Assembly: GCA_016764955.1 (NCBI GenBank)
Contig: JAESQZ010000056.1
Coordinates: forward strand, 1-45,610
Length of the DNA: 45,610 bases
Origin: Deltaproteobacteria bacterium
Lineage (GTDB): Bacteria; Myxococcota; UBA727; JABDBI01
Reading direction: 5' to 3'
Of this stretch, positions 1 through 45,610 are shown in pieces (within the stretch, counting starts at the first letter, position 1; the number at the start of each line of letters is the position of its first letter). The notes under the pieces are model-generated. The model did no database searches, was not told the DNA's origin, and saw only the letters and a list, made by a program, of their open reading frames with translations. A program made the position numbers and the translations under genes.

Positions 1-337
1 ATATTGCTTTCTCTTCCGTAATAATCTGCGTATTGACGCCAGAAACGTAAAGATAAATTGGATCCTTAAGCTTATTCCAGATTTTACCAATGCTAAGATG
101 AGCTGCTGGGTGATTCACGCCAACAAGCTTCTTTTTGTATTTTTTAGATCTAGCTTTGTCCATGTGTGAACAGTGTTTTAGTTGAATCCCTTCAGTAGAA
201 TACATATCTAATTTTAGACAATACCTTTTCTTTTGTTGTTCTAGAGGGCATTTACTACAGATTTTCTTTCTGTATTGTTTATTGTATGCTCTAAGTAATT
301 GTTGAATATGAGTTCCTGATTCAAACCAATCAATCAT
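1..337 (-). CDS. hypothetical Cys/His-rich protein, 3' end cut by window start
   Basis: ATG at 337-335 on the minus strand, open for 112 codons to position 1 (MIDWFESGTHIQQLLRAYNKQYRKKICSKCPLEQQKKRYCLKLDMYSTEGIQLKHCSH...). Missing from the ORF track because it has no stop inside the window. Lies 46 nt downstream of terL on the same strand. Confidence 0.45.
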   Translation of the reverse strand, partial: MIDWFESGTHIQQLLRAYNKQYRKKICSKCPLEQQKKRYCLKLDMYSTEGIQLKHCSHMDKARSKKYKKKLVGVNHPAAHLSIGKIWNKLKDPIYLYVSGVNTQIITEEKAI

Positions 338-383
338 TCTTTCATGAATGAATTTGTTAGGTTTTATCGAAGTGATTGAAATA

Positions 384-2186
384 TTATTCTTCATCTTCAA
401 TTCCCCCTCCAACGTGTCCAACTGCTTTTCCTTGAGATATCATCCAGGCTATTCTTGCAAAGTTAGCAGCTTGTAGAGCATCGTCTGGAGTTCTCTTTTG
501 ATCCTCAATGAAATATCTTCTGTATGGTCTTCTTGCAGTCCCAATATTGATTAGTTCTACTTGCTCATTTGTGAACTGATCAATAATCCATTCTATCTTA
601 GAGTAATCAGCTCCAGGTAGTATGATCCTTGGAGTGAGTTGTCCGTTATTATCAAAGGGGATTGTTACTAGATTTTTGATTGCATCAATGGAATAGGTTC
701 TGTCAATTTCATATTTGTTATCTTGACGATATTTTATCATCTCTTTGATGTTTGGTCGTGGTCTTTCAGGCCTTGTAAGATAAACTAGTCTCAAACATCT
801 AGGTCCAAAGTATTTCATTAGAGATTCTACTTGATGAGTTCCTCCTCCTGAATCTACTACAGATTGAGTAGCTCCATAAGCATCAATGATATTTCTTACG
901 ATTTGATATTGTTCATCTGAAGTTTTTCCTGCTAGTTTAGCTGCAAATAGTAATCTAAACACTGGACCTTGATTATTGATACATTGCCAAACCCATACTA
1001 CAGTTTTGGGTCCTCCTCCCCAATCTGCTCCAACAAATACATCACCTAGAGAATGATCAACGTCTTGAGATGCAACAAAAGATAGATTCTTGTCTACTAG
1101 CTTTAGCATTATTTCTTCAGTGAATGGCATCTCATCTCCCTGAACCATTAAAGCTAGATTGTTTCTTGCAAATTCTAGAGGATCATAGTAGGGGTCTTTT
1201 TTGATTTGCCATTCAATGCTCCACTCTGGATTTACTTTGTAGTCCTCAATAGCTGATAGTATGGTAATTGGAATTCTAGGATTTTGTATTTGATCCAAAT
1301 GGTATCCATGTCTGTAAAAGTTCTTTGGAGCTGCTGCAACAAAATCTCCATCTAGTACATCTAATAGATAATCATCTTCAATTAATCCTTCATCATTAAA
1401 CTCCAATCCATCTCTCCAGGAGTTGTTTGAGTATCCCATAAAATTTTCTCCACGTCTAAATTTATACTCCATTTGATTTGTTGTCTGCCATAATTTATCA
1501 TATTTTGAACTCTTGAATCCCCCTACTCCTCCAATGAGTGTATCCCCCATTGTATCAGCTTGAGTTTGTCGTGCATTGTTGAATCCAGTCCAGTCTTCAT
1601 CTTGGCCTTCATCAATTACTATTCTCATCAATGATTTTCCTTGAGCATTTGACCAATTCTCTCCAGGTAACATCATGTCAATGATTGATTGAGTCTTCTT
1701 TATGATGACTCGATTCTGAGATCCTAGTCTGCTTATTCCAGCTACATGTTTTGATAGAGGTTCATGACCAAATATGTCCTGCCTGAATTTTGTTTCAGTA
1801 AATGTTTTGAGGTTTGCATCTTTGAAGTTGAAATAAGTTTGATCATAGTTGTTTCTAGTAGTAGCTCTGTATGCAAGCTCTGTTCCCATTGTAGTAGTCT
1901 TTCCCCATTGTCTAGCCCATAGTAGAAACTTGAATGGATGATCATCTTTTACAACTTTGAGTAGCATTGGCCTGAGTCGTAATCTGTTTTTGATTCCTTT
2001 GATTGCTCCTCTGCAGTATAGTTCCCACTCTACTCTATCTGTAGGTAATTCAGGTAAATCTTCAATGGTTCTTTGTGAATCAATTAGTAGAGCTCTTTCA
2101 GTTGTAGCAGTGAGTCTAGCTTCATCTAGTCTTTCATCATAACTTAGAGGTGCTGATTCTTTTAGGATGCTATCTTTAGATCTCAA
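384..2186 (-). CDS. terL: terminase large subunit
   Basis: 600 aa. Walker A-like WARQWGKTT and Walker B-like IVIDEGQD, plus C-terminal nuclease-type acidic motifs VGADWGGG and VVDSGGG. A small-subunit candidate lies directly upstream. Confidence 0.9.
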   Translation of the reverse strand: MRSKDSILKESAPLSYDERLDEARLTATTERALLIDSQRTIEDLPELPTDRVEWELYCRGAIKGIKNRLRLRPMLLKVVKDDHPFKFLLWARQWGKTTTMGTELAYRATTRNNYDQTYFNFKDANLKTFTETKFRQDIFGHEPLSKHVAGISRLGSQNRVIIKKTQSIIDMMLPGENWSNAQGKSLMRIVIDEGQDEDWTGFNNARQTQADTMGDTLIGGVGGFKSSKYDKLWQTTNQMEYKFRRGENFMGYSNNSWRDGLEFNDEGLIEDDYLLDVLDGDFVAAAPKNFYRHGYHLDQIQNPRIPITILSAIEDYKVNPEWSIEWQIKKDPYYDPLEFARNNLALMVQGDEMPFTEEIMLKLVDKNLSFVASQDVDHSLGDVFVGADWGGGPKTVVWVWQCINNQGPVFRLLFAAKLAGKTSDEQYQIVRNIIDAYGATQSVVDSGGGTHQVESLMKYFGPRCLRLVYLTRPERPRPNIKEMIKYRQDNKYEIDRTYSIDAIKNLVTIPFDNNGQLTPRIILPGADYSKIEWIIDQFTNEQVELINIGTARRPYRRYFIEDQKRTPDDALQAANFARIAWMISQGKAVGHVGGGIEDEE

Positions 2187-2187
2187 T

Positions 2188-2681: not shown

Positions 2682-2888
2682 TTACTCACGATCGCTTGAG
2701 TCATGTCTATCCATTCTTTTGATATTGGCATCTCTTTGCATGTCTATCTCAAAGAGTGCTTCACTGAATGAGTTTTGTTCTTCTTCAGTTAGGTTCTGAG
2801 GTTTGAATAGAGATAATGCCTCTACTAGATTCCAGATTTGTTTTGTTATTTCTTGCATGTAGTGTGTTTTAATTTCATCATATAACAC
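2682..2888 (-). CDS. hypothetical protein
   Basis: 68-aa ORF on the coding strand with acidic, helical composition. Confidence 0.5.
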   Translation of the reverse strand: MLYDEIKTHYMQEITKQIWNLVEALSLFKPQNLTEEEQNSFSEALFEIDMQRDANIKRMDRHDSSDRE

Positions 2889-2920
2889 CTGGTCTTGTAG
2901 GCCAAACTAGAGTTTTAATA

Positions 2921-3085
2921 TTAAAATTTCTTCCATGTGATACCAAACCAATATCTGCAGTCTATACAGCATCTGTATTTTATTGTCTTTAGTGGCATCC
3001 TAGTTAGTTCATCCTCGTATACTTCCTCTCTACATGTGCTACAGATTGCTAACTTTCTCTTTTCTCTTCTTCTTGTTCTCCCCAC
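2921..3085 (-). CDS. small zinc-ribbon protein (below track cutoff)
   Basis: GTG start, 54 aa: MGRTRRREKRKLAICSTCREEVYEDELTRMPLKTIKYRCCIDCRYWFGITWKKF, with CxxC...CxxC. It fills an otherwise 240-nt gap. I checked the frame codon by codon. Confidence 0.35.
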   Translation of the reverse strand: MGRTRRREKRKLAICSTCREEVYEDELTRMPLKTIKYRCCIDCRYWFGITWKKF

Positions 3086-3128
3086 ATGGAGATTGTAATG
3101 GTTATTTGCAAAGGGAAGTTATTGAATA

Positions 3129-3323
3129 TTAGATTCTAGGTTTACTCTCATGTTTTCTTCTTCTAGCTTCAGCTCCTCTAGGAAGATTACTAACTATGAT
3201 TCTACAGCAAGGACAAATTCTCCCATCCCATTTGATGAATAATGAACAGGTTCTGCAAAAGGGATTTCCAATAAAGTATCGTTGTTTACCTTTGTAGTTT
3301 TTACAAATTCCTTTACAGGTCAT
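3129..3323 (-). CDS. zinc-ribbon protein
   Basis: 64 aa with CxxxC, CxxC and CPCC clusters and a basic C-terminus. Confidence 0.6.
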   Translation of the reverse strand: MTCKGICKNYKGKQRYFIGNPFCRTCSLFIKWDGRICPCCRIIVSNLPRGAEARRRKHESKPRI

Positions 3324-3325
3324 GA

Positions 3326-3592
3326 TTAGAACCTCAAAGCTTGTTTGTAGAATGATTTGTAATGAGTAAAGGTTTCACTTGTTATGAATTCTCTTATCCA
3401 CTGATAGATAGGATTCTGATAGTATCTATTCATGGCTCTCAAAACAGGACTATCATAATTTTCTTTTACCCATAGTTTAGCTGCAATTCTAGTTGATTCA
3501 TAAGATCTATATTTTGATGGTCTGCATCCGCAAGTTCTTTCCCCTCTAATTTGTTCAAAATCCTTTTTGCATGTAATACATTTGATTATCAT
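3326..3592 (-). CDS. hypothetical Cys-rich protein
   Basis: 88 aa with N-terminal CxxC...CGC. TAATG overlap with the upstream gene at 3592. Confidence 0.6.
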   Translation of the reverse strand: MIIKCITCKKDFEQIRGERTCGCRPSKYRSYESTRIAAKLWVKENYDSPVLRAMNRYYQNPIYQWIREFITSETFTHYKSFYKQALRF

Positions 3593-3867
3593 TAAGCATC
3601 AATTATTTTTCCATCTCTAATGAAGTAATGAGACTTGCATGGAAGAGAGAAACTCCCTATTGATGGAGTTAATGTTGGCTTACCTTCATCCATTATCAGA
3701 GTCCAGTTCATGTGATTTAGTGGTGTTACTACTCTTTCTCCACAGCCACAAACACAGAGATGAGTTGCTGTATTGTATTCTTTAGAGATGTATAGTATTT
3801 CTTCCTCTATTCTATCAGGGATGAATGTGACAAAACAAGCTGTGATTGATTTTAGGAGTGAAGCCAT
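3592..3867 (-). CDS. small CxxC...CxxH zinc protein, paralog 1 of 3
   Basis: 91 aa with CVCGCGE ... TLTPSIGSFSLPCKSHYFIRDGKIIDA. The C-terminal motif is shared with 4142..4420. The architecture reminds me of DUF6527, from memory and not verified. Confidence 0.6.
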   Translation of the reverse strand: MASLLKSITACFVTFIPDRIEEEILYISKEYNTATHLCVCGCGERVVTPLNHMNWTLIMDEGKPTLTPSIGSFSLPCKSHYFIRDGKIIDA

Positions 3868-4190
3868 ATCTCTCCTTTAACAGTTCTAAGTAATCCTGTT
3901 GGTAGTTGTTTGTATTCTACCTCCCAAATGTATTCACTGTGATATCCACAAACAAATGACTTGAAGCTGGGATGCAACTCTAGAGTATTATTTTTGATAA
4001 TCTTGAATCCCCAAATACAGCTTGCATCAGGTGAAGGCTTTCCCTCTCCCTCTTCTGCTCTTATTCCATGTGTCTCTTTGCAATAGGGACAAACAAACCT
4101 AATGAATGTATATTTTTCATAGGTTGCAAGTGTAGCTTTAATCAAGCTGGAATAATTACTCCATCTGTAATGAAATAGTGTTCTTTGCAA
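3852..4190 (-). CDS. small CxxC...CxxH zinc protein, divergent paralog 2 of 3
   Basis: 112 aa with CPYCKETHG ... LELHPSFKSFVCGYHSEYIW, the same ligand order as its neighbours. It overlaps both neighbours, so the start is uncertain. Confidence 0.5.
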   Translation of the reverse strand: MQRTLFHYRWSNYSSLIKATLATYEKYTFIRFVCPYCKETHGIRAEEGEGKPSPDASCIWGFKIIKNNTLELHPSFKSFVCGYHSEYIWEVEYKQLPTGLLRTVKGEIWLHS

Positions 4191-4420
4191 GAGTCTCTAG
4201 GACATAAAATTGATGGAAAAATTGTTACTACTCCATCTTTTATCTCAACCTTGTCATGATCTCCTAGATTAGCTACAATTCCACACTTGTAACAGTTGAG
4301 AAAGAATCTGGAATGAGGTTTAGATGGATTGAATGGTGAACTTATCTCATAAAGTATTGATTCCCCTATAGATTTTTTGCAAATATCATTTTCAGGATGA
4401 TGAATAAATTTTACTTCCAT
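4142..4420 (-). CDS. small CxxC...CxxH zinc protein, paralog 3 of 3
   Basis: 92 aa with CYKCG ... TIFPSILCPRDSCKEHYFITDGVIIPA, which aligns with the C-terminus of 3592..3867. Confidence 0.6.
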   Translation of the reverse strand: MEVKFIHHPENDICKKSIGESILYEISSPFNPSKPHSRFFLNCYKCGIVANLGDHDKVEIKDGVVTIFPSILCPRDSCKEHYFITDGVIIPA

Positions 4421-4424
4421 TATT

Positions 4425-4796
4425 TTATGAATGAATTGATACTCCAGATACTGAATAGTTCTCTGAAACTGTTTTGATATTTCTATGTGTGTTGCAGTAT
4501 TTTCTTATGATAAATGATCCAATTCTTGTATAGGTGTCAGTGGATTCTTTGCAGTCTTTGATTTCACATTTGATTAATTCTCCATCTCCGAATTTGCCTG
4601 CATCTAAAACTAGTTGAGTATCCATGATGAATTTTTTGTAACATTGCTCAGCTTCTTCTTTGGATTTATGTTTGTGAGTTTTGTTAGTATCACTGTAACT
4701 AGAGGAGCAATATCCAATAGGCCAAATGGATTCATCATTTTGTCTAGAGTAATTCCAAGAACCGTCTTTTACTTGCCTAGCTTGATCATAATTCAA
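4425..4796 (-). CDS. hypothetical Cys/His-rich protein
   Basis: 123-aa ORF on the coding strand with C-terminal CEIKDC...CNTH. Confidence 0.6.
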   Translation of the reverse strand: MNYDQARQVKDGSWNYSRQNDESIWPIGYCSSSYSDTNKTHKHKSKEEAEQCYKKFIMDTQLVLDAGKFGDGELIKCEIKDCKESTDTYTRIGSFIIRKYCNTHRNIKTVSENYSVSGVSIHS

Positions 4797-4830
4797 TGAG
4801 ATGATTTAGAATTATTCATTATAGAGAACT

Positions 4831-4962
4831 TTAGGTAGAGATTTCATCAATGTCTTTTCCTGCTGCCTCATCAGAATAGTCTTTAGCATTTGCTCTTCTT
4901 ACTAGCTTGATTCCATCATTAGTTAATTTCATGACGTATGGACCATCAATGAAGAGGAGCAT
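4831..4962 (-). CDS. micro-ORF, 43 aa
   Basis: ATG at 4962, TAA at 4831-4833: MLLFIDGPYVMKLTNDGIKLVRRANAKDYSDEAAGKDIDEIST. It fills the gap between annotated ORFs. Confidence 0.3.
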   Translation of the reverse strand: MLLFIDGPYVMKLTNDGIKLVRRANAKDYSDEAAGKDIDEIST

Positions 4963-4969
4963 GATTAAA

Positions 4970-5176
4970 CTAGTAGTCTAAATCTAGAGTTTCTTGTCCT
5001 CCAATCTTTGCGATTAGTGGAGCTAGTTTTTGAATAATTGTTAGTAGATTTTCTTCACTGCCTTTAGCAGAGATAGATAGATTGAATTTTGTTGATTGGT
5101 CTATTAGGATATCATCTTTGTCTTTCTTTTGTCCAGAGCCTCTAGATATTTTGTAATTCCATTCTACATTACCCAT
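4970..5176 (-). CDS. hypothetical protein
   Basis: 68-aa ORF on the coding strand. Confidence 0.5.
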   Translation of the reverse strand: MGNVEWNYKISRGSGQKKDKDDILIDQSTKFNLSISAKGSEENLLTIIQKLAPLIAKIGGQETLDLDY

Positions 5177-5208
5177 GTATTTTATCAGAGTTTACAGTAA
5201 TAGAGAAG

Positions 5209-5415
5209 TTATGTCATTGATTGAGAAGTTTTTCTTCTGATAGTTACTCCATCAACATCTACAGCTCCTGGAGATTCAATTACAGTATGCCATTTGTGAT
5301 CATGAGGTAACAGCTTGTTTAGTTCTTTGAGTTTTGCATTAGTTGGAGATACATTAGTTAGAGCTCCCCATTTCAATCCTGAAATCTTTGGCATGATATC
5401 ATTGATGTCTTTCAT
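5209..5415 (-). CDS. hypothetical protein
   Basis: 68-aa ORF on the coding strand, preceded by a 115-nt intergenic region. Confidence 0.55.
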   Translation of the reverse strand: MKDINDIMPKISGLKWGALTNVSPTNAKLKELNKLLPHDHKWHTVIESPGAVDVDGVTIRRKTSQSMT

Positions 5416-5449
5416 GATTGTAATTTTTTTAATCCATTGAAAAGAAGTT

Positions 5450-5460
5450 GCCTAGATATG
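5450..5460 (+). promoter_or_regulatory. GCCTAGATATG motif, copy in inverted orientation
   Basis: Plus strand reads ttGCCTAGATATG, sharing a 13-mer with the copy at 8640-8652 read on the minus strand. A hairpin follows directly: cccttg(5461-5466) / caaggg(5477-5482). Confidence 0.5.
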
Positions 5461-5530
5461 CCCTTGCCATTACTGACAAGGGAATACCTGAGTTTGTAAG
5501 AAACTGTAATTTCATTAATCATCACTAGTT

Positions 5531-7036
5531 TTAGTGAATTACCTTGAAAAGATATTTTTTTGAGAAAACTACAGGAGTTTCACATCTTGGACATTTACAG
5601 GGAATAGCTCCTGCATCAAATATTTCTTTCATGTCTGTGTAACGATTGTAATCATCAAGGAATTGTTGTTTTTCTTTTTCAGTTTGTGATTCATTAGACT
5701 CAGCTTGCTTTGATGTAATCTTTTCAAGTTTCTTGAATTCTTTTTCAAATGTAGAAATCATTACTTTAACTACATCATCGTAAAATGGAAATGCACAAGC
5801 TGGACTGATGCATTTACTTGCAAACTTTGATTCAGAGGTATAATCACATTGCATACAAAATGTTATCAAAACTCCATGTCTTACATCTCGATAAGTTCTA
5901 AATGAACCGCATCCCTCACATCTCAATCCATAATATCCAATTGAGATAGCATCATCTCTGTTTGGAGGTTCAAGAATTGGTAAGAGATTTTTCATTTTTC
6001 TCTCCATTACTTTCATGGTTTGTTTTGATGTCATTGTGTCAAGATCCTTTTGAGCCTTGATTGTAAGATTTGCTTGTTTAACTTTGAACTCTTCAGGTTT
6101 GAGTTTGGCTTTGATTTCCTTGTATGCTTTTGATTTAGGATCAAGCTTGTTTAGGGTTCTCATTAATTTTTTTATTTCAGGTTGAACAGCTTCAATTATT
6201 TTGTATTGTTTTTCAAATAATTTTTTTGCTTCCTGCCATCTGTTAGCTCCAAAGTCTTTGATTCTATTAACGTAAATTCCTGCAGCGAAATTATCAGTTC
6301 CTTCAATGTGTGCAGCTAGTAGTAAATGCTGAAGCATTTTAGGACATGAAACTCTATCATCAAAGAGGTCCCCTGTAATGTCAATAATGGCATTAGCTTT
6401 GAGATAAGTTTCCTTTACTATCTTTTGATCATCTTCAGAAAGTAATGCAAGAAAATGTGATGTTCTTAACTTATTTTTTATTGATTGTTTAATCTTGATT
6501 TCTTTATCAATTAGATCAATGAGAATTTTATTTTCTTCTTCAGGTTTTGTATTTAAAGAACTATCTTCACGACGGTAAACGTCGTCTAGTTTATTGTCTT
6601 CCTTGTTAGAATAATGATGACCAATCTTGTATTTATGTGGTAGTGTTTCATGCACCCATGTCATTTGTGTTACAACTCCAATTGATTTCATTTCATTTTT
6701 GATGTGAGATGAGATTAATCCAATTTCTTTAATGGTTGGTTGTAGTTTGTTTTCAAGTTCTAGCTCGTGTTGTGATTCTAGTAATTCAGCCCACGTAAGA
6801 AAGATATTTCTTTTTGGGGATTTTGATAATAATACTGCAGCAGTTGTAGGAGATAGTAGTTCCTTTTTGAGTAAGATGATTCTGAGTTGTAGTAAGTTCA
6901 TTTGTTGTTTTACATTTTTTTCCTCTACAGATTCTAGTTGAATAATAAATTTCTCTAGTGTTTCTTTAGTTAGTTCTTCAATCTCTTCACTTGATAAAGT
7001 ATCAAGATCAGAGAGCTTTATTGGCTCTTGTGACAT
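5531..7036 (-). CDS. large coiled-coil protein with C-terminal zinc ribbons
   Basis: 501 aa and K/E-rich. C-terminal CEGCG...CMQC and CKCPRC pairs. First gene after a 72-nt intergenic region. I recognise no enzymatic motif. Confidence 0.7.
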   Translation of the reverse strand: MSQEPIKLSDLDTLSSEEIEELTKETLEKFIIQLESVEEKNVKQQMNLLQLRIILLKKELLSPTTAAVLLSKSPKRNIFLTWAELLESQHELELENKLQPTIKEIGLISSHIKNEMKSIGVVTQMTWVHETLPHKYKIGHHYSNKEDNKLDDVYRREDSSLNTKPEEENKILIDLIDKEIKIKQSIKNKLRTSHFLALLSEDDQKIVKETYLKANAIIDITGDLFDDRVSCPKMLQHLLLAAHIEGTDNFAAGIYVNRIKDFGANRWQEAKKLFEKQYKIIEAVQPEIKKLMRTLNKLDPKSKAYKEIKAKLKPEEFKVKQANLTIKAQKDLDTMTSKQTMKVMERKMKNLLPILEPPNRDDAISIGYYGLRCEGCGSFRTYRDVRHGVLITFCMQCDYTSESKFASKCISPACAFPFYDDVVKVMISTFEKEFKKLEKITSKQAESNESQTEKEKQQFLDDYNRYTDMKEIFDAGAIPCKCPRCETPVVFSKKYLFKVIH

Positions 7037-7044
7037 ATCTAGGC
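7034..7044 (-). promoter_or_regulatory. GCCTAGATATG motif containing the start codon of 5531..7036
   Basis: Minus strand reads atGCCTAGATATGtca. The ATG is the ORF start. Confidence 0.55.
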
Positions 7045-7108
7045 ATTGATACTATGAATGTCATTTAGAAAACACATACAAAAACAATAAAGTTGACTAA
7101 AGCAGTAG

Positions 7109-7297
7109 CTACTTTTTGAGCTGTTTCATCATTTTTGAAACTGCTTTTCTTTCCACAGGTTTTCTCCAATATTTTGAATTACAGTGAGAGCATGTGCTTT
7201 GTTCTACAGTCTTTCCAGTCTTTGAGTCAAGTGAAGGATAGAAATCCTTCTTGCATCTAAAACAATGAAGAGGAGAAATTTTTAATTCCTTTTTCAT
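7109..7297 (-). CDS. zinc-ribbon protein
   Basis: The track start at 7369 lies inside the upstream gene. An in-frame ATG at 7297 forms a TGATG overlap with the upstream stop. 62 aa: MKKELKISPLHCFRCKK...CSHCNSKYW. Confidence 0.6.
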   Translation of the reverse strand: MKKELKISPLHCFRCKKDFYPSLDSKTGKTVEQSTCSHCNSKYWRKPVERKAVSKMMKQLKK

Positions 7298-7857
7298 CAC
7301 GATAGGTTTTTGCCTCCGCAAGTTATACATTTCTTCCCCTTGAAAGTTGCTCCAGGACCACACTTGCAAGCTCCAATTAGAACTCCTGCAGTTCCTTTTA
7401 GATCTTTGACTTCTTCTTTATTCAAGGATTCCATGAAGGTTAGCAGTTCTAATTCTGGAATTTGTTTTCTCCAGGCGTTTCTCTCTGCTTTTGAGTGAGC
7501 TTTGCGTTGTCCAAATGGATCATAGATTCCTTTCTCATCAAAGTAGGGACATTCAGATAATCCTTCAGTCTCTAGGCCTGTTTTTTGGTTTCTTACTTTG
7601 ATGTGAGCTCTCCAGAACCACATTGTAGTATCTTTTGGATCATCTTTTTCTAAATTTACTTCTGAATGGATTGTTTCTAATGGCTGCTCTTTTTGTGACA
7701 TCTTCAAAGTAATAGCTTTGAGGCCAATGAAAGTTAATTCCATTTTTCCTTGAGATGTTTTGTATGCCATTTTCTTTTTGAGTTCTTCAGATAGTCCAGC
7801 TATTTGTTGCTCATCCATTGAATCCATGATAGAGAATTCAGATTTTTCAATAGACAT
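7297..7857 (-). CDS. hypothetical protein with C-terminal zinc ribbon; weak resemblance to Rad52-type annealases
   Basis: 186 aa. A beta-rich core (TMWFWRAHIKVRNQKTGLETEG) is followed by the helix RKAHSKAERNAWRKQIP and by CKCG...CITCGG. The annealase idea rests on pattern only. Confidence 0.6.
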   Translation of the reverse strand: MSIEKSEFSIMDSMDEQQIAGLSEELKKKMAYKTSQGKMELTFIGLKAITLKMSQKEQPLETIHSEVNLEKDDPKDTTMWFWRAHIKVRNQKTGLETEGLSECPYFDEKGIYDPFGQRKAHSKAERNAWRKQIPELELLTFMESLNKEEVKDLKGTAGVLIGACKCGPGATFKGKKCITCGGKNLS

Positions 7858-7973
7858 TAGGATTTATCCTCGTCAGTGTTCAGGAGTAAATCTTTGTTTA
7901 CATAGTCCTGGGTGTGTTCAATTGCTATCTCATCAAAAATCATTGAGAGAATTTTGTTTTCTTTGAAAGACAT
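7857..7973 (-). CDS. micro-ORF, 38 aa
   Basis: MSFKENKILSMIFDEIAIEHTQDYVNKDLLLNTDEDKS, with TAATG overlaps at both ends (7857 and 7973). Confidence 0.45.
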   Translation of the reverse strand: MSFKENKILSMIFDEIAIEHTQDYVNKDLLLNTDEDKS

Positions 7974-8116
7974 TATTTCAATACCTTCCTTAGAGTTTCA
8001 TTCACCACTTTGGAATAGCTGTATGATGTTTGATATTGTGTGATTTGTTTTGCTTGTTGCAGTCTAAGCATCTTGTCCAAATCATCATCTATCATGATTG
8101 TTATTCTTTTGGACAT
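7973..8116 (-). CDS. ribbon-helix-helix (CopG/Arc-like) DNA-binding protein, 47 aa
   Basis: MSKRITIMIDDDLDKMLRLQQAKQITQYQTSYSYSKVVNETLRKVLK. The pattern is N-terminal strand KRITIMIDDDL followed by two helices. TAATG overlaps at both ends. Confidence 0.55.
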   Translation of the reverse strand: MSKRITIMIDDDLDKMLRLQQAKQITQYQTSYSYSKVVNETLRKVLK

Positions 8117-8214
8117 TATTGATTTATCTCCGCAAAATGCACTACACAAAATATCTTACCATCAAAATCAGCAAGGTCTTTTGTGCTTCCACATCTATAA
8201 CATTCATAGGACAT
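8116..8214 (-). CDS. micro zinc-ribbon ORF, 32 aa
   Basis: MSYECYRCGSTKDLADFDGKIFCVVHFAEINQ, with TAATG overlaps at both ends. Confidence 0.45.
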   Translation of the reverse strand: MSYECYRCGSTKDLADFDGKIFCVVHFAEINQ

Positions 8215-8321
8215 TAAATTTTTCTCCCCTCATAGTATGTGAAAACATGTGCATCTTGACTCTCAAAATTGAGTTGTTGATGTAAGTTTTGGAGAATTCC
8301 AAAGAAAGATTTCTTTGTCAT
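8214..8321 (-). CDS. micro-ORF, 35 aa
   Basis: MTKKSFFGILQNLHQQLNFESQDAHVFTYYEGRKI. TGATG overlap with 8321..8644 and TAATG overlap downstream. Confidence 0.4.
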   Translation of the reverse strand: MTKKSFFGILQNLHQQLNFESQDAHVFTYYEGRKI

Positions 8322-8644
8322 CAGTTAATCCCCATCTCTCTAACAATTAGTTCTACTAATTGTTCAGCGTAGATGTCTGTGTGTCTGTCTTCTGCTTTTA
8401 ATGGATCATCATCTGTGTAAAAGTTCACGTTGTATGTGTCCATTTCTGTTACTGTTACCAAAATGCCTTTGAATTTGCTTGGGTTTTTTGGTAGTTTCAA
8501 GTATAATGCAGTTGTTGAAAATATACTTGGTTTGATTCCACTGTATGCAAAGAAAGGGAATCCGTTGACTTTACTTGCTTGGAGTTGTGAAAAAATCTCT
8601 TCAGCTTTGTAATTGTCTTTTGTTTGTATGCTTTGTGTTTTCAT
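8321..8644 (-). CDS. hypothetical protein, first gene of an operon
   Basis: 107-aa ORF whose ATG sits inside the GCCTAGATATG motif. Confidence 0.65.
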   Translation of the reverse strand: MKTQSIQTKDNYKAEEIFSQLQASKVNGFPFFAYSGIKPSIFSTTALYLKLPKNPSKFKGILVTVTEMDTYNVNFYTDDDPLKAEDRHTDIYAEQLVELIVREMGIN

Positions 8645-8652
8645 ATCTAGGC
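8642..8652 (-). promoter_or_regulatory. GCCTAGATATG motif containing the start codon of 8321..8644
   Basis: Minus strand reads ttGCCTAGATATGaaa. A TATA-like ggattataagc lies about 30 nt upstream. Confidence 0.55.
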
Positions 8653-8747
8653 AACATTACTAAAACATACTTGCTTATAATCCTTTAGTTTAAACTAACG
8701 TTAGTTATAGGTAATGCTTAATAATCATTCAATACCACACTAATCAT

Positions 8748-8818
8748 GGGACTCAGGTGTACGGAGCATAATCAGACTGAAAACTTGAGAGGTTCGGGTT
8801 CAACTCCCGAGAGTTCCA
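8748..8818 (+). tRNA. tRNA-Phe(GAA)-like gene with an atypical D arm
   Basis: - Acceptor stem GGGACTC / GAGTTCC, 7 bp with one G-T pair.
- T arm TCGGG-TTCAACT-CCCGA.
- Anticodon loop CTGAAAA; its stem is TCAGA/CTTGA, 4 pairs plus an A-C mismatch.
- Short D arm: GTGT/GCAT with wobble pairs and loop ACGGA.
- No encoded CCA.
- TATA-like ttaataat about 22 nt upstream and a T5 run at 8826-8830.
- This is the only plus-strand gene in the window. Confidence 0.55.
8766..8785 (+). repeat. 20-bp direct repeat, copy 1 (inside the tRNA: D-stem 3' side to anticodon loop)
   Basis: gcaTaatcagactgaaaact. It matches 8860-8879 at 19 of 20 positions. Confidence 0.8.
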
Positions 8819-8859
8819 ACCGATAATTTTTATAAAAAATAGAAAAAAATTGTGCAAAA

Positions 8860-8879
8860 GCACAATCAGACTGAAAACT
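8860..8879 (+). repeat. 20-bp direct repeat, copy 2
   Basis: gcaCaatcagactgaaaact, 94 bp downstream of copy 1. It overlaps the 3' arm of the hairpin attgtgc-aaaa-gcacaat (8849-8866). Confidence 0.8.
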
Positions 8880-8917
8880 ATAATTTCTATGAGGTACAAA
8901 GTTAAAAAGATTCATGC

Positions 8918-9031
8918 CTAAGAATCCCTCAAATATTTTTCATAATCTCTTTTTACTGCTTTTTCATCTGTTTGATTAACAAATCTTTGAATAAAATTTC
9001 TTTTGATTTTTTTATGAGACATTCGTTTCAT
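8918..9031 (-). CDS. basic micro-ORF, 37 aa
   Basis: MKRMSHKKIKRNFIQRFVNQTDEKAVKRDYEKYLRDS. ATGA overlap with the stop of 9028..9222. Confidence 0.3.
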   Translation of the reverse strand: MKRMSHKKIKRNFIQRFVNQTDEKAVKRDYEKYLRDS

Positions 9032-9222
9032 TTTGAATAATTCCTGATAATTTCTTGAACATATTCCTCAGCAGTGTCTTTAGCTGCCATCTCATAAGCT
9101 CTTTTTCTAACTTTAGCTATAATTATTTGAGGATCAGTAATGTTTTGAGCAATACATGAGCTAACTATTCCTCTTAATTCTCGTAGTCTTCCCCCTCTGA
9201 TTTCATTTGGTCCTGCCATCAT
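9028..9222 (-). CDS. hypothetical protein
   Basis: The track start at 9240 lies inside the upstream gene. Tandem ATGs at 9222 and 9219 overlap the upstream TGA. About 64 aa: MMAGPNEIRGGRLRELRG... Confidence 0.55.
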   Translation of the reverse strand: MMAGPNEIRGGRLRELRGIVSSCIAQNITDPQIIIAKVRKRAYEMAAKDTAEEYVQEIIRNYSK

Positions 9223-9896
9223 GAAAAACCATTCCCACAAACATCATCAGTTCTTTTGTTTTGTTTGATTAGTCTCATGCCTTTAGCATAATGTTTAGAT
9301 TGTTTCTCTAGTTTTTTGCACATTCGGTATAATTTAGGATGCTTTTTCTTGATGTAATCCCATCTTAGAAGACTATTGAAAGGGCAAAAATAACAACCTG
9401 ATTTTATCACATAAGGGAATCCTTTCTCAAAGATGTATCTCTCACAATCTAATCTATCCATTTTCCAATCAACTAAAGGATAGTGTTTTGTAATGTAATC
9501 TTCTTTAGCTGTTCTGCATCTTCTTGTTTCTGCTACATCAATTCCAATGTACTCATTAATTTTGAATCCTTTGTAGATTGTTTTGTAAAATTTATGAATT
9601 GGTCCTACTTTAAAATCCCTAGTACACCAACGTTTGAACATGTCTGGAAAAACTTTTCTTGTAATGCATTTATTGAATAGAGTTACTAGTCCAAAGTTTC
9701 TTACAGTTTTGAAAGGAATATCTTTTTTCTCTAAGAATTTTTTCATATACTCTACTGTATTGTAAGTTTCAGGAAGTTCTCCTCCAGTATCAGCAAACAC
9801 TACTTGATCAATTGGAATTTTCTTTTCAATCATTTTTAGAATCATTGCAGTAGAATCTACTCCTGCTCCATAGGATGCTATGTTGAGTTGTTTCAT
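9219..9896 (-). CDS. PAPS reductase / PP-loop ATP pyrophosphatase family protein
   Basis: 225 aa. N-terminal PP-loop ASYGAGVDSTAM (SGGxDS-type) and a C-terminal CYFCP cysteine pair. This matches the phage and archaeal-virus PAPS-reductase-like family. Confidence 0.75.
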   Translation of the reverse strand: MKQLNIASYGAGVDSTAMILKMIEKKIPIDQVVFADTGGELPETYNTVEYMKKFLEKKDIPFKTVRNFGLVTLFNKCITRKVFPDMFKRWCTRDFKVGPIHKFYKTIYKGFKINEYIGIDVAETRRCRTAKEDYITKHYPLVDWKMDRLDCERYIFEKGFPYVIKSGCYFCPFNSLLRWDYIKKKHPKLYRMCKKLEKQSKHYAKGMRLIKQNKRTDDVCGNGFS

Positions 9897-10051
9897 TTGT
9901 AAGTCACCATAATAGAAATATAATATCCTCGAATAGCTGGTTTGAAATTGAAAACTCCGTTTCGATTAAACCATGTGATTGATGTTCTCTTTTTTTGATA
10001 GAGTTTTCCAATAGATAAATAAAATCCAAATATTCTAATCCAAAAATTCAT
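9893..10051 (-). CDS. micro-ORF, 52 aa, hydrophobic N-terminus
   Basis: MNFWIRIFGFYLSIGKLYQKKRTSITWFNRNGVFNFKPAIRGYYISIMVTYK. TAATG overlap upstream and ATGA overlap downstream. Confidence 0.4.
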   Translation of the reverse strand: MNFWIRIFGFYLSIGKLYQKKRTSITWFNRNGVFNFKPAIRGYYISIMVTYK

Positions 10052-29026: not shown

Positions 29027-29027
29027 A

Positions 29028-33176: not shown

Positions 33177-33267
33177 TTTTTCGATAACCTCATGAAATAT
33201 TTATCAGATACATTTGAGATGTTAATTTTACGACCTAAAGTATGTCTTCCAATTTCTTTCCATCCGC

Positions 33268-33621: not shown

Positions 33622-33622
33622 T

Positions 33623-38440: not shown

Positions 38441-38923
38441 TTATGCAACTCCCACATCGATAACTACTAAGTCACCGTCTGCTGTTACTTTCTTCTCTGC
38501 TTGATCTGTGCCTTCAGAATAAATCTCAAAGATTCTTCCCAAGTGACCTTTACCGTTTGGAGAAACTCCTGCCATTACTTTGTCTGCTGTAGTGGTAGCA
38601 GTTACTGCTTTGAGGTCTACTGCTTGGCCTACTGTAAGGGAAGCATCTGCTTTTAGAATAATTCTACTTCCAACTTTTGCTACTTGGACTTTATCTGTGT
38701 CTTCTGCTATTGGTGCTGGAGCATCAGAAATGGCTTGCATTATTCCTCTTGAGAGGTCAGCTACTGAAGTAGTAGTGATTGGAGCAATGAGTCTTCCTTG
38801 TGCATCTGGAGTGTAGATTTTGCCTTTAGTAATTGCTAAGGCATCTTTGATAATTTCGGTATCAATGTTTTGGAATTGATCATAAGGTAGATCTCCTATT
38901 CCAAGTGGTTGAACTGAAGGCAT
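38441..38923 (-). CDS. head decoration / cement protein candidate
   Basis: 160 aa, G/A/V/T-rich and beta-type (KVGSRIILKADASLTVGQAVDLKAV...GDLVVIDVGVA). It sits immediately upstream of the capsid gene, as lambda D does relative to E. Confidence 0.45.
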   Translation of the reverse strand: MPSVQPLGIGDLPYDQFQNIDTEIIKDALAITKGKIYTPDAQGRLIAPITTTSVADLSRGIMQAISDAPAPIAEDTDKVQVAKVGSRIILKADASLTVGQAVDLKAVTATTTADKVMAGVSPNGKGHLGRIFEIYSEGTDQAEKKVTADGDLVVIDVGVA

Positions 38924-38925
38924 TT

Positions 38926-40269
38926 CTAATTATCCTCCCCGAATGTGTCTTCTAGTGATTTACCAGCTAGAGGACCTGTTGATTCTCCAGGGAAATCAAA
39001 ATGAGTTGGAGTCTCAATCGTTTGACCTGATAAATTTGTCATTGTAATTACTTCATTGACTTCATCAATGGTTTTTGCTTTGAGAGAAGTTTCTAATCTA
39101 CTAACTTCTGAATCAGATAAATTATCTTTTGCTTTGAGTAAGATTGAAGCAATTAATGGTTCTTTTATTTTTGCTTCGAGTTTTTCTTTTTCCTCTTCAG
39201 TTGCTTTTCTAGCTTCTACTGCTTCGTCTTTTTCTTTCTCAGCTTCATCTTGAGCTTTCTTTGCAGCAGTGACTTTTTCATCGTCATTGTTTTCTTCAGA
39301 GGCTTTGAGTTTTGCTTCTAACTCTTTCTTTTCATCTTCTTGAGCTTTAAATTTTGATTCTAATTCTTTTACTTTTTCTTCGTTTGATTTTAAATTATCT
39401 CGAAGTTCTTTTTCTTCTGTAGCGGTAAGTGTCATATAATTTTTCGAGCATGAGCATGAACTAAAAGAACTATCAGCAGTTGATTTTTCTTTAGCCTCAT
39501 TGATAGCTCTTAACAAAGATTCTTCTGTAATTGCAATGTCATTTTCTAAATTAGCTTGCAATGTTGCAGCTATACTTTTTGTAACTGAAACAAATCTCAA
39601 TTTATCTTTGTGGCTTATTAAAATTGGAACTTGTTGTAGATGAGATAAGTTATCATCAGCTTTTAGTTGAGCTGCAGTTAATAATTTCATGTGACAATCA
39701 TTACCTTCACATATTGCTGTAATTTTTGCCTCATCACCAAATGCAGGATTTTTAGTTAAGAAAGCATCATGGAGTCCTTCCCATTCATGAACACCAAGCT
39801 TGGGAAGTCCATTTGGCATGGTTCCTAGTATGTCAAATCCTCCAGCTTCAGGCCATATACTAGGGGAAACTGAATCAACTTCTCCTGATTTTACTTTCTC
39901 TAGAAATTCTAATGGGATTGGTCCAGGCTCTAATTTGTGAATAAAAAATGCCTTGTGATCCTCATAATCTAGTGTATGGTCTACAATTGTAGTAACTCTA
40001 AACTCTTCTTGGACATTTACATTATTTTCCTTAGTGGTTCCATCAGTATGATCTAAATCACAATCAGTTCCCACACATTTTTCATATTGAATTCCAGGTC
40101 GTTCATTGTCCTGGAATGATTTGATGTGTTTGAGGATGGATTCCCATGTAGCTCTCCAACCGTTCTTGTTTCTTCTATCAGATATTGCAAATGTCTTTAA
40201 AAAAATTCCTTTTTCTCCATTAAATGAGTCAAGAACCTCAATTTCATTTGAGGCCTTGAGATATAGCAT
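38926..40269 (-). CDS. scaffold protein, possibly fused to a prohead protease domain
   Basis: 447 aa. The central-to-C-terminal part is an extreme K/E coiled coil (EEKELRDNLKSNEEKVKELESKFKAQEDEKKELEAKLKASEE...). The N-terminal 250 aa look globular. I could not confirm protease catalytic residues. Confidence 0.5.
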   Translation of the reverse strand: MLYLKASNEIEVLDSFNGEKGIFLKTFAISDRRNKNGWRATWESILKHIKSFQDNERPGIQYEKCVGTDCDLDHTDGTTKENNVNVQEEFRVTTIVDHTLDYEDHKAFFIHKLEPGPIPLEFLEKVKSGEVDSVSPSIWPEAGGFDILGTMPNGLPKLGVHEWEGLHDAFLTKNPAFGDEAKITAICEGNDCHMKLLTAAQLKADDNLSHLQQVPILISHKDKLRFVSVTKSIAATLQANLENDIAITEESLLRAINEAKEKSTADSSFSSCSCSKNYMTLTATEEKELRDNLKSNEEKVKELESKFKAQEDEKKELEAKLKASEENNDDEKVTAAKKAQDEAEKEKDEAVEARKATEEEKEKLEAKIKEPLIASILLKAKDNLSDSEVSRLETSLKAKTIDEVNEVITMTNLSGQTIETPTHFDFPGESTGPLAGKSLEDTFGEDN

Positions 40270-42207: not shown

Positions 42208-42468
42208 CTAAGCACATTCCAATCCTTTGATGTGTCTATTGAAATAAGCACCTTTAGAACCAGCTCCCTCAAAGGAATCAAAGTTTCTTCGTGTAATGTT
42301 ACAATAATTGTATGTTCTTCCAGGTAATTCGATACTCATAGTGTTATCCTCAAACCAATTTACAGTTCCAACAAATGAACTTGACTGAGTAAATGATTCT
42401 TCTCTGTCTGCTCCAATTAGTGCAGCAGTTAATACTTTGGATTTGAAATTGAAACTAGCTTTTTTTTT
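42208..42468 (-). CDS. -1 frame extension of 42429..42617 with no start codon at its 5' end
   Basis: 86 sense codons run from the A9 tract to the TAG at 42208-42210: KKKASFNFKSKVLTAALIGADREESFTQSSSFVGTVNWFEDNTMSIELPGRTYNYCNITRRNFDSFEGAGSKGAYFNRHIKGLECA. The frame is closed by a TAA (42475-42477) two codons before the tract. The first in-frame ATG appears only at 42339. Confidence 0.45.
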   Translation of the reverse strand, partial: KKKASFNFKSKVLTAALIGADREESFTQSSSFVGTVNWFEDNTMSIELPGRTYNYCNITRRNFDSFEGAGSKGAYFNRHIKGLECA

Positions 42469-42617
42469 GTTAGTTTAGTTAATGCTTGGAGTGCATCCTT
42501 GTAATTGAAATGTGTCCATCGGGCAATTGATGCAGCTATTGCTTCCATGTTTTCTCCAGGACCTGATTTTCCTCCATATTTTTTCAAGGCCTTTTTAGCT
42601 ACTACTTCTAAACTCAT
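42429..42617 (-). CDS. hypothetical 62-aa protein carrying a slippery tract near its 3' end
   Basis: The ORF ends ...LTKLTKKKLVSISNPKY. The codons aca aaa aaa aag contain A_AAA_AAG. Confidence 0.6.
   Translation of the reverse strand: MSLEVVAKKALKKYGGKSGPGENMEAIAASIARWTHFNYKDALQALTKLTKKKLVSISNPKY
42459..42465 (-). promoter_or_regulatory. candidate -1 ribosomal slippery heptamer A_AAA_AAG
   Basis: Lies within the T9 run at 42460-42468 (A9 on the minus strand), in the correct X_XXY_YYZ phase for the zero frame, followed by GCT. Confidence 0.45.
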
Positions 42618-43624: not shown

Positions 43625-45345
43625 CCATCTAACTTTTGTCTAGTCTTATCTAGCTTCAATTTAGAGCCATCACCCAAATCAATACCCTTTCCATCTCCAG
43701 AACCTCCAGGAGTTGTCTCTGCTCCTTCCTCAACTTTATCTACATAGTTTTCAATTCCAGCTAGTTCTCCAAAGTCTTCATCTTTTAGTTGCTTTCTTGA
43801 ATCCAAGTCCATTACTGCCTCAATCTTATCAAACCATTCCTCTATTCTGAGATCATCCCAAGCTAGTTTGATTCTGAATTTCTTGAGGAACTCTGAATTC
43901 TTTTTGTCATTTGCGTATAGTAATCTAAACCATCTCTGATACCATTGTGAAGATATTTGTCGTCCAATCATGTTTCGTAATGGATTAATTACTGTAGATG
44001 TTGCAAGCTGAATCTTTCCAATCATTGTAGCTCTGTTTGATTGTGATTCATCATAGAACATTGATTGAGGTAATCCTATTGTACTAACACAATATCTCAA
44101 AAGAAATTCTACTAAATCTTTAAACTCTGTAACTTTTGGTTGGAAATCTACAGTATGATGTGTTACATCTTCAGGATTTTCAAGTAAAATATTTGGACCT
44201 CCTCTAACTAGATTACTTGCAATATCTTGATACTCTTCTTGTTTCTCTTTTTTTGTATTTCCTTGAGGCCTTACTGTCATGACATACATTCCAGCCCATG
44301 TAGCCTCAGCCATTGCAGGGAAGTTTACACCAATCATTTTTCTAATTACTCTAGATGCATCAAGCATCGGTAATGCCATTGAATCACCATATAACCAGGA
44401 GTTTCTTGTTTTAGCAGAGATAACAGGATTCCAAAGATAAATCATATCTCTAGCTGGAACTTGAGCGTATGCGTTTCTCCACTGTACAGATTTTAATCTC
44501 CATGTTTTAGGATCAGCTTGGATTATTCCCAAATCTCTAGCATGTGCAAATTTCATTGATGAGGGAATTTGTGGATAATGTTTGCCATCAATCTTTACAG
44601 GAGTATCATATCCAAAGATGAGAGCTGCTCTATTGAATAGATTAGTACATGAAATTAATGCTGTAATTTTTTCTTGAAATGATGTGTCAAGTTCTCCATC
44701 ATGATCACGATTTAGTTGGTTATCAATTGCAATTAGTGAATCTATGATTTTTTGAGCTTCTGGAGATTCCATATCTGCTTTGTCTTTTTTCTGATCACCT
44801 GAAGGATTGATTAGTTCTAGTTCAGGTTTGAATCCAGTTCCAACAATAAATTTAGTTAATGCCTCCATTAGTGGACCAATGAAGGTTTGTCTTGCCATTG
44901 CTTCTAATACAATGTAATCTAGATCCTGCATTGGATTGACAAAATATGAGAAAACCTCAAAGTTATTTCTTCGAGTTGTTACATCTGCTGCAGTTAATGG
45001 AGCTCCAGTTATAGGATCAGCAACAGATAATGACATTTGAGGAATCCAATTATCTACAACTTCTGGATCATACTGTGCTTCAGTGTTCATCCAAGATGCT
45101 TTGATTTGATGCATAGAGTTTAGGATTGGTCCTCCTGCATGTGAGATTTTTACATTAGTTGCTTTTCCTGATTGGTCTTTGATTATCTCTTTTACAAATG
45201 GTTTGAATCCATCAACTGAGAGAGAAGTGATTTGTTTTGCTTTTGCTTTAGGATTAAATGTTGGAATGGAAGTGTTAGGGATAATTTCAATTTTCTCAGG
45301 AACGTTTGGTTTCTCATGGTATGGAGTTCCTATTGGGGATTTCAT
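43606..45345 (-). CDS. portal protein candidate
   Basis: 579 aa. It is the largest head-module gene, upstream of the scaffold and capsid genes, and adjacent to terL if the window ends are joined. I read no diagnostic motif. Confidence 0.6.
   Translation of the reverse strand: MKSPIGTPYHEKPNVPEKIEIIPNTSIPTFNPKAKAKQITSLSVDGFKPFVKEIIKDQSGKATNVKISHAGGPILNSMHQIKASWMNTEAQYDPEVVDNWIPQMSLSVADPITGAPLTAADVTTRRNNFEVFSYFVNPMQDLDYIVLEAMARQTFIGPLMEALTKFIVGTGFKPELELINPSGDQKKDKADMESPEAQKIIDSLIAIDNQLNRDHDGELDTSFQEKITALISCTNLFNRAALIFGYDTPVKIDGKHYPQIPSSMKFAHARDLGIIQADPKTWRLKSVQWRNAYAQVPARDMIYLWNPVISAKTRNSWLYGDSMALPMLDASRVIRKMIGVNFPAMAEATWAGMYVMTVRPQGNTKKEKQEEYQDIASNLVRGGPNILLENPEDVTHHTVDFQPKVTEFKDLVEFLLRYCVSTIGLPQSMFYDESQSNRATMIGKIQLATSTVINPLRNMIGRQISSQWYQRWFRLLYANDKKNSEFLKKFRIKLAWDDLRIEEWFDKIEAVMDLDSRKQLKDEDFGELAGIENYVDKVEEGAETTPGGSGDGKGIDLGDGSKLKLDKTRQKLDGKKKLY
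43615..43621 (-). promoter_or_regulatory. candidate -1 ribosomal slippery heptamer A_AAA_AAG
   Basis: The portal frame reads gat gga aaa aaa aag ctc tac tag. The heptamer is in X_XXY_YYZ phase within the T9 run at 43617-43625, followed by GCT as at the other site. Confidence 0.5.
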
Positions 45346-45503
45346 TAGTCCAAGGCCTCAATAGTTTTTAGTACATCTAAAGAATCCTCGATAGTAATTG
45401 ATTTTTTAATTCCTCCTCCTGCATGTGAATAATCTTTTTCTAGATTTGCTGATTTACTAGGTCCATTGACATATTCTTTTAACAGTTCCTCTTGATTTTC
45501 CAA
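45345..45503 (-). CDS. possible 52-aa ORF, TTG start
   Basis: (M)ENQEELLKEYVNGPSKSANLEKDYSHAGGGIKKSITIEDSLDVLKTIEALD. TAATG overlap with the portal ATG. Confidence 0.3.
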   Translation of the reverse strand: MENQEELLKEYVNGPSKSANLEKDYSHAGGGIKKSITIEDSLDVLKTIEALD

Positions 45504-45610
45504 TGGAATAATTTATGGAAGTATCTTAAAGAGAAATAATACAATCATTTTAACGATTAATCATAGGATGGAATCCCATGTGTTGCATTATCTTCTTTTT
45601 GTATTTTTTA

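Follow-up and report, generated by a model that had tools for sequence, protein, structure and literature searches.

A contig of 45,610 nt deposited in the genome of a deltaproteobacterium raises the question of what it is, which organism it comes from and in which form it was captured. The contig (JAESQZ010000056.1 of assembly GCA_016764955.1; hereafter the window, by which we mean the whole 45,610-nt stretch) is the longest of the 253 contigs in this 1.69-Mb assembly, and the window comprises all of it. An earlier note, made from the sequence alone, had taken it for the complete, circularly permuted genome of a temperate head-tailed virus of an archaeon, possibly a marine ammonia oxidizer. 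Our analysis leads to a similar view: the window is probably the genome, complete or nearly so, of a temperate head-tailed double-stranded DNA virus of marine Nitrosopumilus or its close kin, and it was very probably binned with a bacterium by mistake.

With regard to the kind of virus, the head-tailed nature proposed in the earlier note is supported by the profile hidden Markov model (HMM) match of TerL, the large subunit of the terminase, and by the structural model of the capsid protein. TerL has 115 homologues, many of them on contigs of 44-50 kb. The 375-aa capsid protein has no family match of its own, and its AlphaFold2 model (mean pLDDT 77, from a 44-sequence alignment) gave 298 Foldseek matches with E <= 0.001, nearly all to HK97-fold capsids plus two encapsulin shells of the same fold; they include cyanophage P-SCSP1u, Haloferax tailed virus 1 and HK97 itself (probability 1.00, E down to 3e-10). 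As judged from this model, the protein is the HK97-fold major capsid protein. TerL, the capsid fold and the domains of the tail proteins place the virus very probably in the class Caudoviricetes, in the HK97 lineage of double-stranded DNA viruses. A greedy call of non-overlapping open reading frames (ORFs) of at least 35 aa found 86, every one on the minus strand and together covering 93% of the contig, and no ORF of the window matched a cellular housekeeping family in profile searches of Pfam, PHROG and NCBIfam. The single coding strand and the lack of cellular genes agree with the earlier note, but its count of about 100 coding regions comes down to 86 at this minimum length. The placement of the terminase genes at the low end and of the portal and head genes at the high end also stands, with TerL located by HMM, the capsid by fold and the small terminase (TerS) and portal candidates by position. 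In the Pfam search, TerL, the portal candidate, the capsid and the integrase had no match.

The host was approached through the relatives of TerL, which were sought with an alignment in 185,579 species genomes, and also in 401 Nitrosopumilales genomes and in 37 genomes of the bin's own order. All four matches among the species genomes were metagenome-assembled genomes (MAGs) named Nitrosopumilales archaeon or Nitrosopumilus sp., relatives were present in 16 of the 401 Nitrosopumilales genomes, some of them within megabase contigs, and none was found in the 37 other genomes of the bin's order. The matches in Nitrosopumilus MAGs reach 50-57% identity to the window TerL. Among 50,697 deposited phage and archaeal-virus records, on the other hand, no TerL is more than 24% identical, and the closest ones, annotated as terminase large subunit, are those of Bacillus siphoviruses with 23-24%. 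These remote matches do not argue for a bacterial host. The Nitrosopumilales host guessed in the earlier note is supported by the four matches of TerL among the species genomes. Moreover, the G+C content of the window (33.8%) is similar to that of chromosomal Nitrosopumilus DNA (0.31-0.41, mostly 0.33-0.35).

The bin, in contrast, is bacterial. Its other contigs have a mean G+C content of 44.5%, from which the window is 3.5 standard deviations lower (z = -3.5), and they encode the beta' subunit of bacterial RNA polymerase, RpoC (TIGR02386, 1789 bits), and the alpha subunit of bacterial DNA polymerase III, DnaE. Because the bin is bacterial by these two genes and the G+C contents differ (44% vs 33.8%), the contig was very probably mis-binned. 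Only chance 18-24-mers are common to the window and the other 252 contigs, and no match of a CRISPR spacer or an attachment (att) site was found inside the bin. A few other short contigs of the assembly have a G+C content of 26-34%, so further contaminants are possible. The bacterial MAG is contaminated by the virus contig, and cleaning is warranted.

The signs from which the earlier note had concluded an archaeal host served less well than the relatives. Boxes resembling the TFB recognition element (BRE) and the TATA box at a fixed distance were not confirmed, as the recurrent box is not canonical. Zinc-ribbon micro-proteins do exist, but only 6 of the 86 ORFs carry paired CxxC motifs, and the tRNA indeed has no encoded CCA, but is itself weak. 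These signs add little, and the host call rests on the relatives. The recurrent box, which resembles GAATAGTTCYCT, precedes at least 12 start codons by about 30-38 nt, most of them belonging to structural genes, and may be a virus-specific (late?) promoter element.

Whether the genome is complete was judged from its two ends. In the sense of the minus strand, 383 nt lie between terL and the low end and 265 nt between the high end and the portal candidate, and joining the ends with no missing bases gives a terL-portal spacer of 648 nt, compared with about 190-650 nt in the relatives. Near the high end, a segment of about 90 nt is about 80% identical to the DNA that follows terL in two relatives, L005 and L006, whose TerL are 74-80% identical to that of the window. 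In L005 it follows terL immediately, and in L006 at a distance of 273 nt, with the portal gene next. Because this segment ties the high end to the low end, both ends of the window fall in one terL-portal spacer, and the join restores the usual order of terL, spacer and portal candidate, as in every relative and as the earlier note had expected. Two other relatives with terminal repeats, the IMG/VR contigs UViG_3300005253_000019 (G439; 45,308 bp, 121-nt repeat) and UViG_3300026541_000038 (G441; 49,129 bp, 117-nt repeat), are both rated 100% complete and colinear with the window in circular gene order, and they are broken elsewhere, one in the tail-fibre gene and the other in the portal gene, respectively. 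Comparison with them suggests that the window is, as the earlier note claimed, closed and permuted, and it is likely that nothing substantial is missing from the contig. The earlier note had also observed that the ORF truncated at 1..337 would continue across the join for seven codons to a TAA. This is true (LKNTKRR, then TAA at 45588-45590) but weak as evidence of closure, because the ORF is without a homologue and stops are frequent in A+T-rich DNA; the ORF may be a lineage-specific insert or not a gene.

The lifestyle depends on the 536-aa protein. Its sequence alone had no match in Pfam, PHROG or the sequences of solved structures, a profile search of the latter was likewise empty, and its assignment comes from its fold and its family. 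There are 225 homologues; those 40-46% identical carry PF00589 and reside on contigs up to 2.5 Mb, and those that have names belong to Nitrosopumilus, Nitrosarchaeum or 'Thaumarchaeota'. PF00589 was matched by 24 of the 28 aligned members. The family alignment shows no variation at K282, H411, R414 and Y442 and next to none at R285 and H437. The AlphaFold2 model (mean pLDDT 82.6) found exclusively tyrosine recombinases in Foldseek, namely XerA, Tn1549 Int, lambda Int, XerH and Cre. Because of this predicted recombinase fold, the PF00589 matches in the family and the conserved residues, we identify the protein as a large tyrosine integrase. It resembles the lambda-type integrases and archaeal XerA in the two-domain fold, in the invariant H, R and Y with a further R and H nearly so, and in a short core with an overlap region between inverted arm sequences. 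On the other hand, the window protein is larger (about 540 aa) and has in its model an additional N-terminal region as well as a C-terminal helix of 55 residues, and its candidate target is the 5' start of a protein gene, SRP19. Separately, a Nitrosopumilus MAG (G443) holds a full-length homologue (40% identical; G443:C7:629450-631141) at the edge of a G+C-rich island and a second copy cut to 122 aa by an insertion sequence (IS) element (G443:C6:300956-301324). The 335-aa transposase of this IS element recurs on both contigs.

The target was suggested by the closest integrase (76% identical), which is encoded on a 90.9-kb ENA contig, ctg484361. Here the archaeal genes for a proteasome subunit, TFIIB, Gar1 and SRP19 are followed directly by the integrase, and then by a 450-nt gap equivalent to the 536-nt gap of the window, early genes, methylases, a PAPS-reductase-like gene, terS, terL, portal, head, tail/fibre and small genes. 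This virus part, at least 40.9 kb long, is syntenic with the window. DNA homology between the two is 80% over 1,535 nt and starts at window position 20314, which corresponds to the first codons of the host SRP19. The candidate 14-nt core of the phage attachment site (attP), GTAAACTTTCATTT, agrees at 13 of 14 positions with the Nitrosopumilus SRP19 start, is found a single time in the window (0.13 expected by chance) and lies 33 nt upstream of the integrase start; the arms of the longer site, ATGGGTTGTAAA-CTTTCA-TTTACTCACCAT at 20322-20293, match as inverted repeats at 9 of 12 positions. The host counterpart, attB, would be expected at an SRP19 gene that begins ATGAAAGTTTAC. At nine of ten related SRP19 loci, the site is empty and the SRP19 ATG abuts the stop codon of the upstream gene. 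The tenth, in a Nitrosopumilales genome (L102; G251:C27, 1787-2800), carries 1,014 bp of inserted DNA whose position coincides with the SRP19 start codon. CTTTCA and 14-nt terminal inverted repeats (ACTACTACCCACTT / AAGTGGGTAGTAGT) flank the insert, a layout expected where core-type sites surround an overlap of 6-7 nt. The insert may be a remnant, or a miniature element that uses this site too.

Other candidates for the att sites were discarded. A location of attP inside the 536-nt gap was rejected, because homology with the integrated relative passes through the gap and ends upstream of the integrase. A first guess for the att core of the integrated relative, ACACCATTA, was wrong, as a search for the empty site showed that the true right flank had not been reached. 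BLAST of the attP region against the 401 Nitrosopumilales genomes gave only matches of 20-40 nt at chance level, and a 22-mer recurring among them was the start of an unrelated gene, not SRP19. The candidate attP is placed at 20301-20314, upstream of the integrase.

Integration next to host genes was found in the relatives, with archaeal genes on at least one side, in ctg484361 and in a 103-kb contig of Nitrosopumilus sp. OFTM383. In the latter, a provirus with a TerL 50% identical to that of the window has host genes on both sides, recognized as archaeal by visual inspection (AspRS, a CdvC-like AAA ATPase, carbamoyl-phosphate synthase and ATP-dependent DNA ligase). It carries a different, 365-aa integrase at its left end, which is unrelated in sequence to the window integrase. 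The temperate nature claimed in the earlier note agrees with the recombinase fold, the family-wide PF00589, the attP-like core beside the gene and the mosaic relative integrated in an archaeal chromosome. Its statement that the window is not the integrated permutation also holds, because the attP-like core is intact and internal, as expected of a free form.

These results can be put together in a model. The circular order observed is integrase, 536-nt gap, early genes, DNA methylases, ATPase and DNA-metabolism genes, terS candidate, terL, portal candidate, HK97 capsid, tail module, small genes (possibly for lysis) and attP, back to the integrase, and the assembler would have broken this circle at some arbitrary position in the interval from terL to the portal candidate. 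In the lytic cycle, the terminase would pack DNA through the portal into an HK97-type head. In lysogeny, as deduced from the relatives, the integrase would recombine the core with the first codons of the host SRP19 through a likely 6-7-nt overlap, CTTTCA, flanked by imperfect inverted arms, and the provirus would sit directly upstream of SRP19 with the integrase gene adjoining. The contig would then represent the free or replicating form, not a provirus.

Several results weigh against the reading of the window as a complete temperate virus of Nitrosopumilus. The window has no terminal direct repeat or end overlap of 10-300 nt, the joined-end sequence had no match in the metagenome contig collection, the first 40 nt had none in the viral contig collection, and the ORF spanning the join has no homologue in the relatives. 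The portal gene is a candidate assigned mostly from its position, and its search against the sequences of solved structures, by sequence and by profile, gave no match. The integrase of the window falls below the Pfam threshold; the provirus on ctg484361 is mosaic, with a TerL only 35% identical, and its right att end is beyond the stretch examined. The exact 14-nt core had 16 matches in the 401 Nitrosopumilales genomes, against about 40 for the reversed control and thus at chance level, and neither of the two that were checked lies at SRP19. No CRISPR spacer or att match ties the window to a cell genome among the bin contigs and the same 401 genomes.

The results on the ends would fit a contig that is nearly complete and unclosed, lacking from a few bases to a gene or two, or a genome with fixed virion ends and no permutation; the terL-portal spacer also varies in length and content among the relatives. 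This is rather unlikely in view of the spacer, which is at the top of the relatives' range even with no missing bases, of the total size, which matches that of complete relatives with terminal overlaps, and of the modules, as every one seen in the relatives is present in the window. The results on the integrase and the core could likewise mean that the virus is not truly temperate, its integrase being either non-functional or used for something else, such as the resolution of dimers if the genome is circular or episomal, and neither of the closest structural relatives, G439 and G441, has a homologue of this integrase. Set against this are the confident recombinase fold, the invariant H411, R414 and Y442 with R285 and H437 nearly so, the 76% identical integrase at the border of an integrated relative and the attP-like core just upstream of the gene, which together leave this explanation little probability. 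Least credible of all is that binning was correct and the contig is a bacteriophage of the binned bacterium. It can call on the bin itself and on the Bacillus siphoviruses as the best matches of TerL among deposited phages, but those are far more distant than the Nitrosopumilus MAGs, the order of the bin has no relative, the G+C contents are 11 points apart, no sequence is common to the window and the other contigs, and the integrase family and integrated relatives reside in archaeal chromosomes. A probably complete temperate virus of Nitrosopumilus in its free form is the reading that we keep below.

Families for marine thaumarchaeal tailed viruses have been established by the International Committee on Taxonomy of Viruses. 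Head-tailed viruses of marine Thaumarchaeota were found in metagenomes and single cells (Labonte 2015; Chow 2015; Ahlgren 2019; Lopez-Perez 2019; as cited in PMC6563490). The window resembles these uncultivated viruses in host group, Caudoviricetes hallmarks, low G+C content and in being known from sequence alone, while its lineage differs in carrying the large integrase and having integrated relatives; the two are likened here by description. More closely comparable are UViG_3300005253_000019 and UViG_3300026541_000038, which share TerL (49-54% identical), circular order and size class with the window but have no homologue of its integrase. Many of their early and tail genes are unrelated to those of the window, so that the genomes are mosaic. 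The Caudovirales-like elements Nvie-Pro1, NCAV2-Pro1, CalSub-Pro and NitKor-E1 are all <20 kb, lacked recognizable att sites and replication genes and were suspected of domestication or decay (Krupovic et al., 2019; PMC6563490). They share thaumarchaeal hosts, TerL and HK97-type modules with the window, and NitKor-E1 has TerS and TerL together with a tyrosine integrase. In contrast, the window is probably a full 45.6-kb genome with an intact attP candidate, and its relatives are flanked by host genes. The recorded targets of thaumarchaeal elements are tRNA genes (at the 3' end with one exception), intergenic regions and protein genes (always at the 3' end), and SRP19 is not among them (PMC6563490). 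A survey in 2026 reported five proviruses in 1,078 Nitrosopumilaceae genomes (PMC13573593). Thus the new features here are modest, namely the large integrase family and a candidate target at the 5' end of a protein gene, and the virus group itself is little known rather than new in kind.

A bolder view, which we regard as possible but doubtful, is that the window represents the first intact, probably inducible group of temperate head-tailed Nitrosopumilus viruses, whose large integrase inserts the genome at the first SRP19 codons. Insertion would sever the SRP19-Gar1-TFB string from its upstream gene, and an outward TATA-like element could drive those genes; such an element, TTAAAATAT, is conserved in the arm proximal to int, about 26-34 nt from the SRP19 ATG and facing outward. 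If this is true, lysogeny in a nitrifier of global importance would rewire how two genes are expressed, one for the signal recognition particle and one for a basal transcription factor. Ammonia-oxidising archaea are drivers of marine nitrification, and to our knowledge almost nothing is known about their temperate viruses. The free-form 45.6-kb genome, the integrated mosaic relatives and the defined candidate target site give a concrete model of lysogeny for this group, and TerL, the capsid, the large integrase and the SRP19 site make a marker set for finding more such viruses. The features of the window are collected in Table 1.

Table 1. Coordinates of genes, candidate genes and sites in the 45,610-nt window
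Feature	Position	Strand	Basis
Whole contig, probable non-integrated virus genome	1..45610	-	equals contig C1; 86 minus-strand ORFs, 93% coding; G+C 33.8%
ORF running off the low end	2..421	-	once the ends are joined, stops at the TAA of 45588-45590
Large terminase subunit TerL, 600 aa	384..2186	-	phrog_675 E 1e-22, phrog_2 E 8e-13
Small terminase candidate, 157 aa	2188..2661	-	position directly upstream of terL
Early/DNA-metabolism region with many small ORFs	2682..18121	-	Pfam, PHROG, NCBIfam matches
Weak tRNA-Phe(GAA), sole plus-strand gene	8748..8818	+	ARAGORN; Rfam RF00005 35.5 bits, E 7e-4
PAPS-reductase-like protein	9219-9896	-	Pfam/PHROG
HerA-like ATPase, 585 aa	10051-11808	-	DUF87; NCBIfam HerA
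ParB-like/MT-A70 methyltransferase	12879-14051	-	Pfam/PHROG
Methyltransferase-like protein	14140-14823	-	Pfam/PHROG
536-nt gap with no large ORF, downstream of integrase	18122..18657	.	sequence read directly
Large tyrosine integrase (predicted), 536 aa	18658..20268	-	fold, family alignment
attP core candidate ATGGGTTGTAAA-CTTTCA-TTTACTCACCAT	20293..20322	-	14-nt core GTAAACTTTCATTT at 20301-20314
Five small genes between tail genes and attP	20362..21944	-	conserved in integrated relative
Tail module	21970..35169	-	domain matches for 1013- and 588-aa proteins; others by gene order
FN3 fibre, 588 aa	21970-23736	-	fn3, Ig_J_second, minor-tail PHROGs
Baseplate or fibre protein, 1013 aa	24260-27301	-	CBM_5_12, baseplate-wedge or tail-fibre PHROG domains
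Tape-measure candidate, repeat-rich, 734 aa	30612-32816	-	gene order
Tail protein candidate, 355 aa	within 21970..35169	-	gene order
Major capsid protein, HK97 fold (modelled), 375 aa	37311..38438	-	AlphaFold2 + Foldseek
Two head-module genes, 447 + 160 aa, upstream of capsid gene	38441..40269	-	conserved trio
KTSC-domain frame with no start codon of its own	42214..42507	-	57% identical to L005 portal C-terminus; 66% to 108-aa KTSC protein of L108
Portal candidate, 579 aa	43606..45345	-	position after terL and size; 40 syntenic homologues
Conserved spacer segment of about 90 nt, terL-portal	45453..45541	-	about 80% identical to post-terL DNA of L005, L006
GAATAGTTCYCT-like box upstream of starts	40269, 37032, 36558, 35169, 30563, 29462, 23736, 21944, 21630, 5176, 4796, 3085	-	near-fixed distance

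With regard to the other packaging and head genes, the 157-aa terS candidate had no HMM match in Pfam, PHROG or NCBIfam and shares 41-47% identity with the ORF that immediately precedes terL in the relatives. Among the relatives of the portal candidate, just 3 of 27 matched Phage_portal, weakly (E 0.017). The 447-aa and 160-aa head proteins had no family match in Pfam or PHROG; a gene trio matching the sizes 447/160/375 is present in L005, L006, L002 and c81, and scaffold or protease roles are presumed for the first two. In L005 the portal ends in the KTSC domain, which in L108 is encoded by a 108-aa gene of its own. In the window, the KTSC frame lies 1.1 kb downstream of the portal body (related stretches 42429-42617 and 43606-43650). 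This displacement may come from an assembly error in a homopolymer, from a true frameshift or from an insertion that split the gene. A 411-nt stretch at 40616-41026 holds no ORF, while the corresponding place in L005, L006 and L108, between the portal and the head genes, holds a 473-480-aa gene, of which tblastn detected no remnant.

In the tail region, ten smaller proteins had no PHROG match. The gene order (355-aa protein, two small ORFs, 734-aa protein, baseplate genes and fibres) suggests a long tail. Of the five small genes between the tail module and attP, a 93-aa protein is 56% and an 89-aa protein 83% identical to the counterpart in the integrated relative; from their location they are a possible lysis cassette.

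The 536-nt gap, measured from the integrase to the next ORF of at least 60 aa, has exactly the size that the earlier note had given for a non-coding stretch beside the internal integrase, and it is a probable early regulatory region. A perfect 14-nt direct repeat, TGTGAATTAGGAGA, brackets it at 18070-18083 and 18619-18632, and a perfect 11-nt inverted repeat, GAGTGACAGGC / GCCTGTCACTC, lies within it at 18366-18376 and 18423-18433, flanking the start of a small ORF with GCCTAGATATG. These repeats may be operator or origin elements.

The order of genes in the early region is colinear with that of G439 and of the proviruses. Its tRNA-Phe exceeds the gathering score of Rfam (29); its D arm is poor, and its anticodon stem contains an A-C mismatch. 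A further match of the 585-aa HerA/FtsK-like ATPase is to phrog_2666 (E 5e-16), whose annotation is terminase large subunit. It is the second packaging-type ATPase of the window and is located in the replication region.

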